The notes below the pieces were generated by a model. It had not been told where the DNA came from. It worked only from the letters and a program-made list of their open reading frames with translations, and ran no database searches. From contig OZ024742.1 in the NCBI GenBank assembly GCA_964016885.1, positions 311,674,001-311,738,000 of the forward strand: a stretch of 64,000 nucleotides of DNA, given 5' to 3'. Source of the stretch: Eledone cirrhosa (lineage: Eukaryota). Of the stretch, positions 7,344 to 56,627 are shown piece after piece. Within the stretch, counting starts at the first letter, position 1. Each line of letters begins with the position of its first letter. Made by a program: the position numbers and the translations under genes.

Positions 7344-8165
7344 ATTAATTCAAAATATTAATAAAATAGATATTCTTGTGATCAATTATATTTTATTATA
7401 CATATTTCCGAGGTACTGAGTTAAGTTCAACAGTACGTCCTCATCAGATAAAATAAATGATACATGACATACCCTGACATAGTAGATGGTTAAGATTTAA
7501 TCATGGTAGTGATTAACTTATGACAAAACTCAATATTTATACCCTAATATTGAGAACAGGAGATAACATAATACAAATAATAGAGAGGGTGCGTGTAATA
7601 GAGTTTAAGAAATACATGGCATCAATATAACAGTTATAAACATTTTTTTAATTTTTAAAAACTACTGGAGAAAGAGGAGGGATAGGAAAGCATAGAGGAA
7701 GAAACAGCTGATGTGATAATATATTATTAGATGAAAGATGATTAAAGAGAGAGAGAGACAAAGGGGAGTAATTTATGTTCAAGTTTATATACACAGATCT
7801 CCATATAAGCAATACATGTCCAAAATAATATAGTTGGCGGTTAATTTTCAAAATATTTATGTTCTCAATATTAGGGTATAAATATTGAGTTTTGTCATGA
7901 GTTAATCACTACCATGACTAAATCTTAACCATCTACTATTTCAAGGTATGCCATGTATCATTTATTTTATCTGATGAGGACGTACTGTTGAACTTAACTC
8001 AGTACCTCTGAAATATGTATAATAAAAGATCACAAGGATATATATTTTGCTAATATTTTGAATCAATATTAATAACTGTGGAAAACATTTTTTGTTGAGT
8101 GCTTCCAATCTATTATATAACTCATTCTTTGATGTATTCATTGAACCTTGTTTAACTTTTAAATA
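7344..8165 (+). mobile_element. Fold-back PLE-end insertion with HHR (7965-8027 +; mirror copy ~7391-7453 -)
   Basis: TTTTAT-CTGATGA-GGACGTACTG..CAGTACCTCT-GAAA-TATGTA-TA-ATAAAA; ~210-bp inverted arms; (TA)n on both sides. Confidence 0.75.
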
Positions 8166-8399
8166 TATAATATATATATATATATATATATATATATATA
8201 TATATATATATATATATATATATATATATATATATATATATATATATATATATATAGGAAAATGTTCAAGACTGACTCTACTACCCAAAGTACTGAGTAC
8301 TCTGGTGCGTTATGGTCCACCTGATTCCTTACCACACTCCTTCGTTATATATATATATATATATATATATATATATATATATATATATATATATATATA

Positions 8400-8622
8400 G
8401 GTAGAACACCGGAAGGTAATGTCCATAGTGGGAGAGCACTCAGTCCATGGGACGAGTTTTGTAGAAGAAGTAACACAACAGTTAGTTCACCATACCGAGA
8501 ACAATTGTTTCACCTTATGCGGATCTTCAGCTCGAATTTCGAGCTGTCCGAGCTGAAGATCCGCATAAGGTGAAACAATTGTTCCCGGTGTGATGAACTA
8601 ACTGTTGTATTACTACTTCTAT
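8400..8622 (-). mobile_element. Mini fold-back with minimal HHR (8548-8588 +; ~8495-8534 -)
   Basis: CCGAG-CTGAAGA-TCCGCATAAGGT-GAAA-CAATTG-TT-C(T/C)CGG, with palindromic stem III AACAATTGTT. Confidence 0.75.
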
Positions 8623-8708
8623 CTCCCCCCCTCTCTCTCTCTCTCTCTCTCTCTCTCTCTCTCTATATATATATATATATATATATATATATATATATAT
8701 ATATATAT

Positions 8709-9040
8709 AATTGGTGGGGGATGCTTAAAGCGTCCGTAAACGGTATGCCGTTTGAGCAATCGATGCCCTTACAGAGCAGAGTATAATATCACATAAGAAA
8801 CGAAGAATCAGTGGTGCGACGAATAAAAGTTAATAGACATATTACAATCGTTTCTCTGGCGACCAGCTCGAGGAAACCCTGCTTCGTAGAATCGAGACAT
8901 ATCTGAGGATCTTGCGATTTCAGAGTCAGTTGTGATCATTGCATCGATCGTGCCTCGAGCTGGTCGTCAGAGAAACGATTGTAATATGTCTATTAAATTT
9001 TATTCGTCGCACCACTGATTCTCCTTTTCTTATGTGATAT
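8709..9040. mobile_element. Fold-back with HHR at 8896-8990 (+)
   Basis: GACATAT-CTGAGGA-TCT...AGA-GAAA-CGATTG-TA-ATATGTC (7-bp stem I); inverted arm at ~8786-8873. Confidence 0.8.
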
Positions 9041-9147
9041 ATATATATATATATATATATATATATATATATATATATATATATATATATATATATATAT
9101 ATATATATATATATAATATATATATATATATATATATATATATATAT

Positions 9148-52545: not shown

Positions 52546-52552
52546 TGAAATA

Positions 52553-52739
52553 ATTGTTTCTACTTTTGGCACAAGGCCAGCAATTAACCAGTGCATTGCT
52601 GGTACTTTATTTTATCGACCCCCGTAGGGATGAAAGGCAAAGTTAAACTCGGTGGGATTTGAACTCAGAATGGCAAGGGAAGTAACTCTATGCGTCAAAG
52701 CATGGCGTCCGACCCTCTACCGTTACTGCCAACCCACCG
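52553..52739 (-). mobile_element. tRNA-derived SINE
   Basis: Same family as 711-888. Confidence 0.85.
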
Positions 52740-53227
52740 AAAACTTAGTTGGACTAGAAACTGAAGCCTCTTAAATTCAAATGGAACAGACACACATACA
52801 CTCACACAAATTTATAAAAAAACACACAGGCATATATTCATACAGCGTTTCATTATGTCATACAGCGTTTCATTTTGTCAGTCGTCACAGAAATGTATGT
52901 ATACTCACACACCCATACACTCACACACATATCTTGTCAGTCACCACATATGTTTATGTATGTGTAGATGTGTGTGTTTAATTCTCTGTGTATCTGATTA
53001 AATATTTACGTGAAGATGTGTTTGTATGTAAGTTACTAAGACACAACATACGTAACGAACGTGTAAACACACCCACCCACACACTCACTGACACACACAC
53101 GTTCATATACAACATGTGACGTCATTGTCGTCGTGTTATAAAATGTCCGTTTACTTATAGTTGACTATAGAAAGATTATTTTAGATAAAATGTTATATTG
53201 TTTTAATCCAAATGAAAATAAAAATTA

Positions 53228-56200
53228 CATGTTGTGAGCGTTTTAGCGAAATTGATAGCTCTAAGGAGAAGTGGTAAAGTGATGGAGGAGTAGTAATTAT
53301 TGGTGTCGAATTGGATAAAACGGCAATGTTCCTTGTTCCATATGCCGTTGAATCAATCAATCACCGCGAAAGAATTGTTCCACAGTGCAAGAGGGGCCAA
53401 ATTTCTAATTTCAGGTATAATTCTATCAAGAATCCTTTTACTAAATCTACCTAAATCGGACTTCGTAGGGTTAATAAGCCGAATAGAGGGGTTGTTCGGA
53501 AAATTGGATTTGTGATCCTTCAGGGTAAAGTGGAGAGAAATAGGGTCCAGAGGTTCAGTTCGGTCCAGGATGCTGAGATCGGAGGTGATTTTAAACCCAG
53601 CATCGTTGATTTCATTAATGACGCCCCGATTAGTTTTACGGTAATCCTTAGTTACAGCATTATGTGGCAATTGGTGGTAAGTACTGCGTTCTACTTCATA
53701 TAGATTGTCAGTTTTGTCGGAATGGACGTGCACAGCATTAGAATCCTTAATAGAACGAATTCTATTCTTCAGGTCCTGCTGGAAGGAATTACTCCTATTC
53801 CGAAATTTGATACTCCGTATGAGTTCCAAGACAACATTTTCTAAGGGTAGCAATGCTGGGTTACTCGGAGCGTTATTATAGGTTTTAAACCCAAATTTAT
53901 CCTGTTTGTTGTCTGCTTTTCCCTGGTTGTCGAAATAAAAGGCACGCCAACGCAACCTTTTAATGAAAGCGTCTGTTTTCTGTATCAGGAGTTTTAGGTA
54001 TGTTTTCCTGCTAGGTACGGGTATGTTCTTTGTAGAAATATTCAGATGTTGTTTCTGCATGATGAATATAAGTCAATAGAGGGCTCAACCGAGGGAGCCA
54101 AATAGTAATAATAATAAATTTGAAGACTAAAATCCAAAGAGGGCTCGATAAGGATAAATATATATCAAATATATAAGAGAACCGTAGAGCAAATATTTAT
54201 TAAAATAACAGATTTAAGTTTAAGCAAAGAATCGCTGCTTTCACCCTTAACGGATCTTCTGAAACTAACAAAGTCAATCTGTGAACGCAGAAGTGAATAT
54301 TTCAAAAAAATTTGCAACCGGAGGAAGACAGGAAGACGATACTTTGTTCGTGGAAACGTTCCCTGGCAAAGAACAGGAAAAAAACGAATATAATACGTCA
54401 TTATTTGGAGCGGTGAAAAACAATTACACGCAAAGACAAAACCACGTTTATGGTATAAATGAAGTTGTAGACTAATATTCTATTAGGTGGTTCATAGAGA
54501 CGTTCTCTGGCAATGAACTGAAAAAACGAAGATAATACGTCATATGTGGGGCGGGGAGAACAATTGCACGCAAAGACAAAACCACGTAAATGGTATAACT
54601 GTAGTGGTAGACTAAAATTCTAACTAGGAAACCGAATGATTCTCGGCTTCAGAGTTAAGAATAAAGTAAATAAAATACAGAGGTAATTGAAATTAAATAA
54701 ATACATACACGCATCCATATACGTACATACACAAGCATACGCTAAAACACTCGCCATAGGTATACAAATACACGCACGAACACAACCCCCCGCCCACACC
54801 CCCCCAAAAAAACCCGCACGCACAATACAGAACCCACGCAACGCCTGTACCGTACGCATACGAATGTATAAACCAAATACACATAACAAAATATATAAAT
54901 AAATATATACGCATATAACAAGCGCACACACATACCTACATGTAAATACACATACGTTCGGGGACGTACGTCAACAAAAACACAAAGTATACATATACAC
55001 ACACCCTACATACGTACGAACCCGCATACACACACAGACGCAAAACTCCAGTATACACATAACCAAAAGCATATGTACCAGAATATATAATATATACGCC
55101 ATAACATATACAATCAAATATACGTACGAGAAAGTATACGCACCTACACAAAACATACAGGTAATATATACTTACCTATACAAATAAGTAATGGTATAAA
55201 CATAACATATACTTAGCTACCACATCAAGACGTAAAATATCCGCGTATAGTTCGTACTATCCGTTAGGGTATAATGTGGGGCTGTAATACAGGAAAGTTT
55301 TGTGCAATTTATGTTTACAAGCCGAAATTGCCTCAGATTTTTTGTTTAAGATGTGGTCTTTGGCGTAGAGTATTTCCAGGGCCTCAGCGGCGCAGGGGTT
55401 ACATGGTCTTTTATTTCCGTTATACGATCTAGCCCTAGCTAGGATCTCCCAGTGTAACTTATATTGGGTGTGGTTGTCTTTTAGACTCCAGATATAAGCT
55501 GAAAGTGACGTCATATTACTTCTTAAAGGGTAACGAAAAGAACGGGTATGCATGTAAAGACGCTGCTTGAATCTATTGGCGGTTAACCCTATGTAGGCCC
55601 TACGTGGGTGTTTCAACCTTACATTTGTAGACAATGTTACTAGAGAGGCATTTCCCGGATAGGGGGCAGTCAACCCGATTCCTACAATTAGAGTTAGTAC
55701 TAACTACAGGGTTGCATGTGTTCCTACGGCTAGGTAGTTTAGCTAAATTTGAAGCTGTGATGTTATGTGCAAGCTTAGGAGTCGTAGAGTAAGAAATTTT
55801 AATAGTATTTCTATTAAAAATTTTACTATATTTATGTGTAGGGGGAAAATGCTTCGTAATTAGAAAGATCTTAGCTAATGGTGTGGCCACCTCCATATTA
55901 TATGGTGGGTTATAATGCGTCGGGATATATTTCTTTTAGGTCTATTCTCGTACTCTGTAAAAGCTACCTTATCGACAAATCCACTCCGAGCAAGAACTTC
56001 ATTGTAATATGTGGAATGGTCGTTGAAAATATGCTCGTTAGTAGATAGGCGGGAAAGCCTCAAAGAAACGTTTCTTACCAGGTTCTTGGTTATGCTGGCA
56101 GGATGGTTAGAATGCTTACTTATGTAATTAAGCGTATCATTCGGCTTTCGATACGGGTAATGGAAGCCATTCGATAAATTGAGGGTAACGTCGAGGTAAT

Positions 56201-56627
56201 TAACGACCGAGAGGTTGGCCTCAACCTGTATGGAGAGGTTGAAGCCTTTAAAGAAAGCTGTGAGTTCTTTTCTGAACCTGTCATAAGCACGTGGGCCGCA
56301 CTTAGTCATGGTCAAAAGACCATCATCACGGTACAAACCACCGCCTACGTTGGGGAATTCTTTGCCAGCGAACGTTTCCACGAACCAAAGTATCGTCTTC
56401 CTGTCTTCCTCCGGTTGCAACGTTTTTTTAAATATTCACTTCTGCGTTCACAGATTGACTTTGTTAGTTTCAGAAGATCCCGTTAAGGATGAAAGCAGCG
56501 ATTCTTTGCTTAAACTTTAATCTGTTATTTTAATAAATATTTGCTCTACCGTTCTTACATATTTGATATATATTTATCCTTATCGAGCCTCTTTGGATTT
56601 TAGTCTTCAAATTTATTATTATTACTA
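53228..56627 (-). mobile_element. Hydra-type PLE family A, permuted partial tandem (3' half, pLTR, 5' part) plus an opposite-strand pLTR at 56370-56627
   Basis: Minus 56365->55257 encodes the RT C-half and EN (GLYRDDGL, YIGLTA, CNPC..CKH); pLTR/HHR at ~54110-54300; ORF start 54060->53228 (HSDKT, LINPTKSD). Confidence 0.85.

Follow-up and report, generated by a model that had tools for sequence, protein, structure and literature searches.

The stretch of DNA analysed here, 64,000 nt of the Eledone cirrhosa genome (contig OZ024742.1, positions 311,674,001 to 311,738,000; hereafter the window), is dense in (TA)n runs and long inverted repeats. The inserts in these runs are Penelope-like element (PLE) retrotransposon insertions, and almost every insertion has one end at each of two fixed positions inside the element. 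The layout is (TA)n, inverted arm, direct arm, tail, (TA)n. A first-pass annotation of the window had quoted eight junctions of this kind; all are present in the sequence, in place or within a few nucleotides, and several further elements show the same layout. The arms are in general flanked by (TA)n, as that annotation held, although the short arm at 8400-8621 meets a (TC)n tract before the (TA)n. Tails, which it had put at 60–130 nt, measure 38–118 nt in the references for 20 families and 36 nt in one copy.

Family A is represented by a full insertion with a 721-aa open reading frame (ORF; Table 1). The predicted structure of this protein has a pLDDT of 88, and its top two fold matches in the PDB are telomerase, the best being TERT (E 7e-9). 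The ORF contains a YRDD motif. A Pfam search gave no match at E 0.01, and a CCHH motif was not seen by eye; a YIG-type motif is visible, and the top homolog, P0001, has PF01541. Published systems are compared here from the available portions of the cited papers. The family A insertion has the features of endonuclease-containing (EN+) PLEs: a single ORF whose reverse transcriptase (RT) resembles telomerase, pseudo long terminal repeats (pLTRs) from partial tandems, a head-to-head inverted 5'-truncated copy, a tail at one end and a bias towards microsatellites (PMC3846280, PMC8557442). It also has those of the Hydra clade, namely an RW(K/R) motif, DKT, CxCX5C, CxxC and CxH around a conserved E and N, insertion in (TA)n and hammerhead-like motifs, although its unit of about 3.5 kb exceeds the size of generally under 3 kb given for that clade (PMC8557442). 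At least 40 copies are 100% identical over 179 nt among the matches listed, and a tandem array with a period of 3531 lies at G000:C1:437200363-437211134. Family A is very young and apparently intact.

End positions were mapped in 1.664 Mb of the 3.0-Gb source genome, made up of the window, 100 kb on each flank and 14 other 100-kb blocks at preset positions; 2 of the 16 sampled blocks are satellite DNA without TA runs. Each non-simple 45-mer adjoining a TA run of at least 10 nt was compared with the 20 family references, and junctions were located by reading the sequence and by scanning outward from every TA run. The family definitions derive from asymmetric pairs, and the window itself is part of the sample. 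For families M, P and S, 241 rows were left out because their references contain internal TA runs. All 79 TA-abutting 3' ends of family A fall at two points. The inner site (offset -1/0) accounts for 32 ends, the outer site (+79 to +84) for 47 and other positions for none. The family A reference holds 20 TA sites across that range, and at least eight of these are detectable yet unused (-10, +3, +12, +15, +24, +31, +44 and +63), so the two positions are not a product of chance. Over all 20 families, 368 of 383 scored ends belong to the same two classes (192 inner, 176 outer, 15 elsewhere). Arm ends are thus not scattered at random among the TA sites.

The same junctions occur in raw Illumina reads from a separate study. 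There, 3176 reads are clipped at 39051, the family A inner site, and continue as (AT)n; at 56539/56540, the family D inner site, 2323 + 461 reads do likewise. Joints on the opposite strand are also present in these reads. Because independent reads carry identical junctions, the palindromes are not a product of assembly.

The first-pass annotation had proposed priming at the tail end and at the base of the tail hairpin. The two fixed positions, one at each end of an insertion, stand; the tail end, by contrast, is not where the RNA ends. Where partial tandems are intact, it runs on as TATCTAG into the ORF leader at 19 of 20 loci, the 20th being an inverted junction. Since the tail continues into the leader and then into a second copy of the hairpin, the inner and the outer site are both internal, and they are equivalent.

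Just 3' of both sites lies a bulged hairpin with the pattern GCUC-Y…R-UH-GAGC-ACU. In families A, D and r133, each of the two sites is followed within 6–12 nt by a hairpin closed by RCTC/GAGY. The closing stem covaries between families (ACTC/GAGT, GCTC/GAGC, GTTC/GAAC), and a Y-R pair is kept across the 2-nt bulge. A looser version of the pattern finds a hairpin after 11 of 20 inner sites and after 19 of 319 other TA sites. Measured in this genome against one reference per family, the hairpin stands 2–9 nt downstream of 108 of 131 inner ends, and 88 of the 131 share at least 2 nt with the flank past the junction. The outer continuations of families E, K, N, L and F have no match to the looser pattern, in a comparison that excludes the outer rows of families C and O, which had been read from the opposite strand in error. 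Tails as unusually stable folds were considered and rejected, with a folding-energy z below -2 in only 2 of 12 tail regions; the tails are not unusually stable overall, so the signal is a small motif. In the window nothing reached the gathering score of an Rfam family, and low-scoring microRNA matches at 1 of 10 loci were taken as chance.

The hairpin pair recurs in relatives, a set of 78 metagenome loci with 36–42% protein identity, 47 of which include 200 nt upstream of the ORF. At least two hairpins lie upstream of the ORF in 35 of these 47, compared with 7 of 235 windows taken from within ORFs. After dereplication, 26 of 40 Hydra-like relatives have two strict copies before the ORF, spaced 55–83 nt apart, while a strict copy occurs in 0 of 423 ORF windows. 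All 62 of the 62 hairpins retain the Y-R pair that spans the bulge (40 C-G, 22 T-A), and other registers fail. TA-abutting ends in the relatives' own contigs lie before hairpin 1 in L243, L249 and L297 and before hairpin 2 in L233 and L252. The available part of PMC8557442 does not mention a twin GCUC/GAGCACU hairpin for the Hydra clade.

The two sites are used in a paired manner. Among 94 head-to-head pairs within 6 kb, 10 that span a long TA run were set aside (7 inner+outer, 3 inner+inner) and 3 have an off-site end. The remaining 81 clean pairs, from all 20 families, comprise 80 inner+outer, 1 inner+inner and 0 outer+outer. Independent choice of ends allows at most 50% inner+outer (p 3e-23). 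A prospective test was also made, in which loci were picked solely by the ORF leader and the far ends were fetched afterwards. All seven far ends were as predicted, with five outer left ends leading to an inner end and two inner left ends to an outer one. Nine more ORF-bearing insertions with both ends visible are all inner+outer, the short inner arm of L224 being read from 18 flanking letters only. One further ORF-bearing locus has its left end out of range. The first-pass annotation treated every insertion as two-armed; L221, L227 and L228, all ORF-bearing, and several short solo insertions have no inverted arm.

Symmetric pairs are the minority in the sampled DNA, with 25 TA-anchored cases versus 187 asymmetric ones. 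Seventeen of the 25 cross further TA runs, from neighbouring or nested inserts. Others are two that come from one large microsatellite palindrome, one true inner+inner pair, four unassigned cases with CA...TG ends and one family U insertion with an internal TA tract. This last case (23485-24418) looks symmetric because the PLE at 24180-24372 sits in that tract.

The same two end classes are seen in non-Hydra PLE families. These are family G, with a DKG-type RT and a GIY-YIG domain, which by its motifs is Neptune-like, and family E, with a DK(S)G-type RT, in which 5 of 5 pairs are inner+outer. The two-site rule is thus present in non-Hydra PLEs here as well, and the GCUC-type hairpin appears to be its Hydra-clade form. 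As a separate observation, (TCTA)n or (TC)n often stands between the family G tail and the TA run.

The arms record how each insertion was built. Across 13 insertions, 6 of 382 comparisons at segregating sites show a difference between the two arms of the same insertion, versus 1888 of 4531 between insertions. Of 68 insertions, 39 have a clean centre. Among these, 19 have a longer tail-less arm, 4 a longer tail-bearing arm and 16 arms of equal length, which bears out the earlier statement that either arm may be longer. The insertions also look joined at the centre, as had been suggested for two cDNAs. No bases are inserted at 25 of the 39 clean centres, and 23 of those 25 have 0–3 nt of microhomology; other centres hold short inserts that repeat nearby arm sequence. 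Short inserts that copy pieces of the arms are seen at the centres of L008, L014, L016 and L026 and in 10–20 nt spacers in the window. Polymerase theta end joining or RT template jumps would make inserts of this kind.

In families D, K, M and B, short arms cluster between -52 and -68 relative to the inner site. In family A, both arms have a 5' truncation hotspot at 38987-38997, where read depth rises more than tenfold. The hotspot includes TTAGTC, which to our eye resembles an initiator element, and it may be a transcription start. Read ends from a restriction-site-associated DNA (RAD) library pile up at 38998 (AATT, likely the enzyme site), and joints from that library were excluded from the arm-length statistics. 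The hammerhead-like motif, whose core and stems were identified by pattern search here and in 26 of 35 relatives, is of the U3-A8 variant described in PMC4209133. Hammerhead cleavage was rejected as the source of arm ends. The predicted cut at 39031 is 17 nt off the inner site and is not an end hotspot; two family A centres have an arm ending near it.

The reading that we consider probable from these junctions is programmed twin priming on one RNA, in which two RT active sites, one per copy of the bulged hairpin, would each start a cDNA and the cDNAs would be joined head to head. The endonuclease would cut both strands of the (TA)n target (step 1), as the Poseidon element of Anolis carolinensis (PAc) does in vitro. 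The free ...TA-3' ends would then pair with a UA-rich patch of 2–5 nt lying a few nucleotides 5' of each hairpin (step 2), as the junction matches and the site-hairpin spacing suggest. From the inner site, the RT would copy upstream; from the outer site, it would copy the tail, then usually displace the inner cDNA and continue (step 3). To our knowledge, PLEs lack RNase H. Each cDNA would stop at the RNA 5' end or drop off independently, consistent with the arm lengths (step 4). The 3' ends of the cDNAs would join through 0–3 nt of microhomology or short templated inserts, as seen at the junctions, and each cDNA may template the second strand of the other (step 5). The double-strand cut, the assignment of one RT to each hairpin, the single RNA, the strand displacement and the reciprocal second-strand synthesis are thus the putative parts of this scheme.

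Some of the support for programmed twin priming on one RNA is qualified, and other observations weigh against it. The arms share alleles, as a single template would give, yet two RNAs of a single source locus, copying by fold-back or gene conversion at a later time would explain this equally well. In favour of the reading, the two arms tend to stop together: of 36 insertions in which both exceed 70 nt, 12 have arm ends no more than 20 nt apart, with 2.9 expected; the test pools families, and family hotspots may inflate the count. Also in its favour, outer cDNAs stop in the tail or at the inner site in 11 of 39 cases, though the excess at the inner site is modest (7 in a 17-nt window chosen post hoc). 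With the pattern used here, the hairpin motif was not found at the inner site in 9 of 20 families, including G, which mostly show the same two end classes, and the match in family E is loose and probably due to chance. The first-pass annotation had noted a single exception to the rule, 39789-40013, which is indeed off-site; others exist, including an inner+inner insertion at 1253-1355, the three pairs with one off-site end and some of the single-arm insertions. Finally, PAc start sites have no homology to the target, while most junctions here match it by 2–5 nt (PMC11167929).

The alternative that survives best, though we think it unlikely, is twin priming on two RNAs from the same source locus, held in a complex whose asymmetry imposes one start at each site, inner and outer, with no need for strand displacement. 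It accounts for the pairing, the shared alleles and the free overlap of the arms. It does not predict that the arms stop together at varied positions, or that outer cDNAs stop at the inner site, and it leaves unexplained why a single RNA has two hairpins with a conserved spacing of 55–83 nt.

Single priming followed by fold-back is improbable as a general route. Here one cDNA would be copied back on itself, stop at the other hairpin-marked site and be linked to the (TA)n end on the far side. This route fits the frequency of near-perfect palindromes (29 of 80) and the alleles that the arms have in common. However, a return strand cannot outreach its template, which excludes simple fold-back for the 19 of 39 clean centres with a longer tail-less arm. 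The inverted arm often extends past the start of the adjoining direct copy, as in L191, L202, L209, L218, L219, L220, L225, L229, L230 and the window element, and some insertions have no arm overlap at all. Fold-back could account for a minority of the equal-arm cases.

We give still less weight to a model in which an endonuclease resolves an intermediate and so makes the tail difference, the hairpin being recognised in DNA form; PMC8557442 suggests such resolution for the tail. The hairpin pairs are mostly Watson-Crick and could form in single-stranded DNA, and the Drosophila virilis endonuclease needs tail sequence (cited in PMC11167929). Against this, both ends meet (TA)n with short template matches, outer+outer precursors number 0 in 81 pairs, and PAc tail ends coincide with measured RT starts (PMC11167929). 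Self-priming on an antisense template, which would make the palindrome before integration (PMC3846280), is very improbable; short local palindromes at some centres fit it, but it leaves unexplained the two fixed outer ends tied to sense-strand hairpins, the arms that are unequal in both directions and the centres without a palindrome. Palindromes and (TA)n are known assembly hazards, but fold-back chimeras from the library or the assembly, or cruciform breakage in (TA)n, are largely refuted and have next to no probability, given the independent raw reads, arms that differ by a few percent and ends at fixed element positions in the contigs of other organisms.

A fixed second priming position had been put forward as undescribed, a claim that does not hold. 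A one-sided tail on inverted pLTRs is described for PLEs (PMC3846280, PMC8557442), and Frangieh 2024 found in vitro that PAc starts internally at two sites, which delimit the tail (PMC11167929). PAc also cuts both DNA strands and extends them, and a dimer is predicted (PMC11167929). As in PAc, the tail of the elements here is delimited by a pair of internal start sites close to the pLTR-ORF junction, observed in this case as insertion ends; the target is AT-rich and the hammerhead cut site is not an end (PMC11167929). They differ in tail length, which is 30–40 nt in PAc and up to 118 nt here, and the available text on PAc does not state use of one site per end or a link to inverted arms or a duplicated hairpin (PMC11167929). 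The EN+ PLE papers treat the tail as optional and ascribe it to endonuclease resolution or antisense self-priming, whereas here the pairing is counted (80/81) and tied to a cis-signal (PMC3846280, PMC8557442, in the parts available). Strict inner+outer pairing and the twin hairpin were not described in the literature searched, which took in few subscription papers, and the available part of PMC13282606 contains nothing on either. The pairing rule and its twin-hairpin cis-signal therefore appear to be undescribed.

The elements work like twin priming in the long interspersed element L1 but are not a member of that system. In L1 the second priming is occasional, uses variable sites and yields pieces that barely overlap. 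Here it is routine, at a fixed site, with overlapping arms and no poly(A). What the two share is that both break ends are reverse-transcribed and then joined (10.1101/2024.12.14.628481).

Telomerase has its closest relatives among the reverse transcriptases of PLEs. A broader claim, which we hold only tentatively, is that obligate asymmetric twin priming by an RT dimer on the duplicated, covarying hairpin of one RNA is the normal integration route of EN+ PLEs; the dimer would make two overlapping cDNAs from both ends of a double-strand cut, and each cDNA would then template the other's second strand. If true, a single step would account for the tail, the inverted pLTR and the head-to-head geometry, and telomerase's sister group would gain a defined RNA anchor 3' of the template, which bears on the evolution of template positioning. 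A retroelement that writes from both cut ends is also of interest for gene-insertion tools. The origin of tandem and inverted PLE insertions and of the tail is a named open problem (PMC8557442), and the in vitro study left later integration steps unvalidated (PMC11167929, as available). The two-site rule is a real, general feature of a known class, and together with the cis-signal it makes that question testable: the pairing, the same-template signal and the covarying double hairpin point to exact mutations and read-outs on a young, apparently intact element.

Table 1. Positions of PLE features and insertions in the window
Feature	Position	Strand	Details
Family A full insertion in (TA)n	34447..39128	+	inverted inner arm, partial upstream pLTR, ORF, 3' UTR, pLTR, tail
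Family A inverted inner arm	34447-35446		99.5% identical to 38049-39048
ORF, 721 aa, Hydra-type PLE RT, probable C-terminal endonuclease	35675..37840	+	RWR, DKT, CxCX5C, CxxC-E, CxH
Family A inner start site (TAT), end of inverted arms	39049..39051	+	
Hairpin 1 (ACTC-T..A-TT-GAGT-ACT), just 3' of inner site	39057..39083	+	second copy from 35510, in upstream pLTR
Family A 80-nt tail	39049..39128	+	outer start site at its 3' end
Family A outer site in RNA leader (TAT) and hairpin 2	35581..35612	+	hairpin GCTC-C..G-TA-GAGC-ACT, 35588-35612
Hammerhead-like motif, U3-A8 core	38948..39031	+	predicted cut after 39031; loop II contains hotspot 38987-38997
Family D outer site in ORF leader and hairpin 2 (GCTC-C..G-TT-GAGC)	54074..54104	-	then ORF fragment 53353-54072
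Family D inverted arm with tail	56358..56625	+	inner site ~56534-56540, outer end 56625
Family B (Hydra-type)	24847..28002		long tail-less arm with ORF 3' fragment (26371-27174, -); inner site 27915, 88-nt tail
Family B-related Hydra-type insertion	48647..51846	+	tail ~88-91 nt
Minimal family A insertion	24180..24372	+	56/57-nt arms and 80-nt tail; nested in internal TA tract of 23485-24418
Family U insertion	23485..24418	-	96-nt tail on left, inner end 24418
Family P-type insertion	7346..8169	+	arms 7348-7558 / 7860-8063, tail ~104 nt
Family M-type insertion	8400..8621	-	short arm adjoins (TC)n
Family Q insertion	8710..9036	-	80-nt tail
Family C, 466-468-nt tandem hammerhead-motif repeat	9468..10878		one inner and one outer end, 70-nt tail
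Family H insertion	10989..11297	+	87-nt tail; second copy 13625-14026, -
Family S insertion	11374..11690	-	65-nt tail
Family F insertion	12026..13237	-	~530-nt arms, 99-nt tail
Family I insertion	15375..15615	+	55-nt tail, without GCTC-type hairpin
Family O insertion	20080..21010	+	118-nt tail, GTTC/GAAC hairpin
GTTC/GAAC-hairpin insertion	21086..22222	+	inner site 22114, 109-nt tail
Family K insertion	24560..24752	+	~71-nt tail
Off-site exception	39789..40013	+	left arm begins ~58 nt into tail

Other elements were noted alongside these. Family C, which also occurs in block C15, has no ORF that we could see and is retrozyme-like; it obeys the inner+outer rule without a GCTC-type hairpin. GIY-YIG fragments of Neptune-like PLEs lie at 14191-15310 (-) and 60602-61117 (-). 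A 645-aa RT-endonuclease frame at 40781-42718 (-) resembles family E, a PLE of another clade, and two broken RT-like frames, about 69% alike, are found at 43700-45700 and 62100-64000 (+). The sequence at 17322-20019 forms a long nested palindrome that has duplications within it and, on the left, a tail of 136 nt. Four symmetric TA-flanked inverted repeats with CA...TG ends, in blocks C4b (2759, 34828), C7 (98378) and C9 (87934), are possibly DNA transposons.

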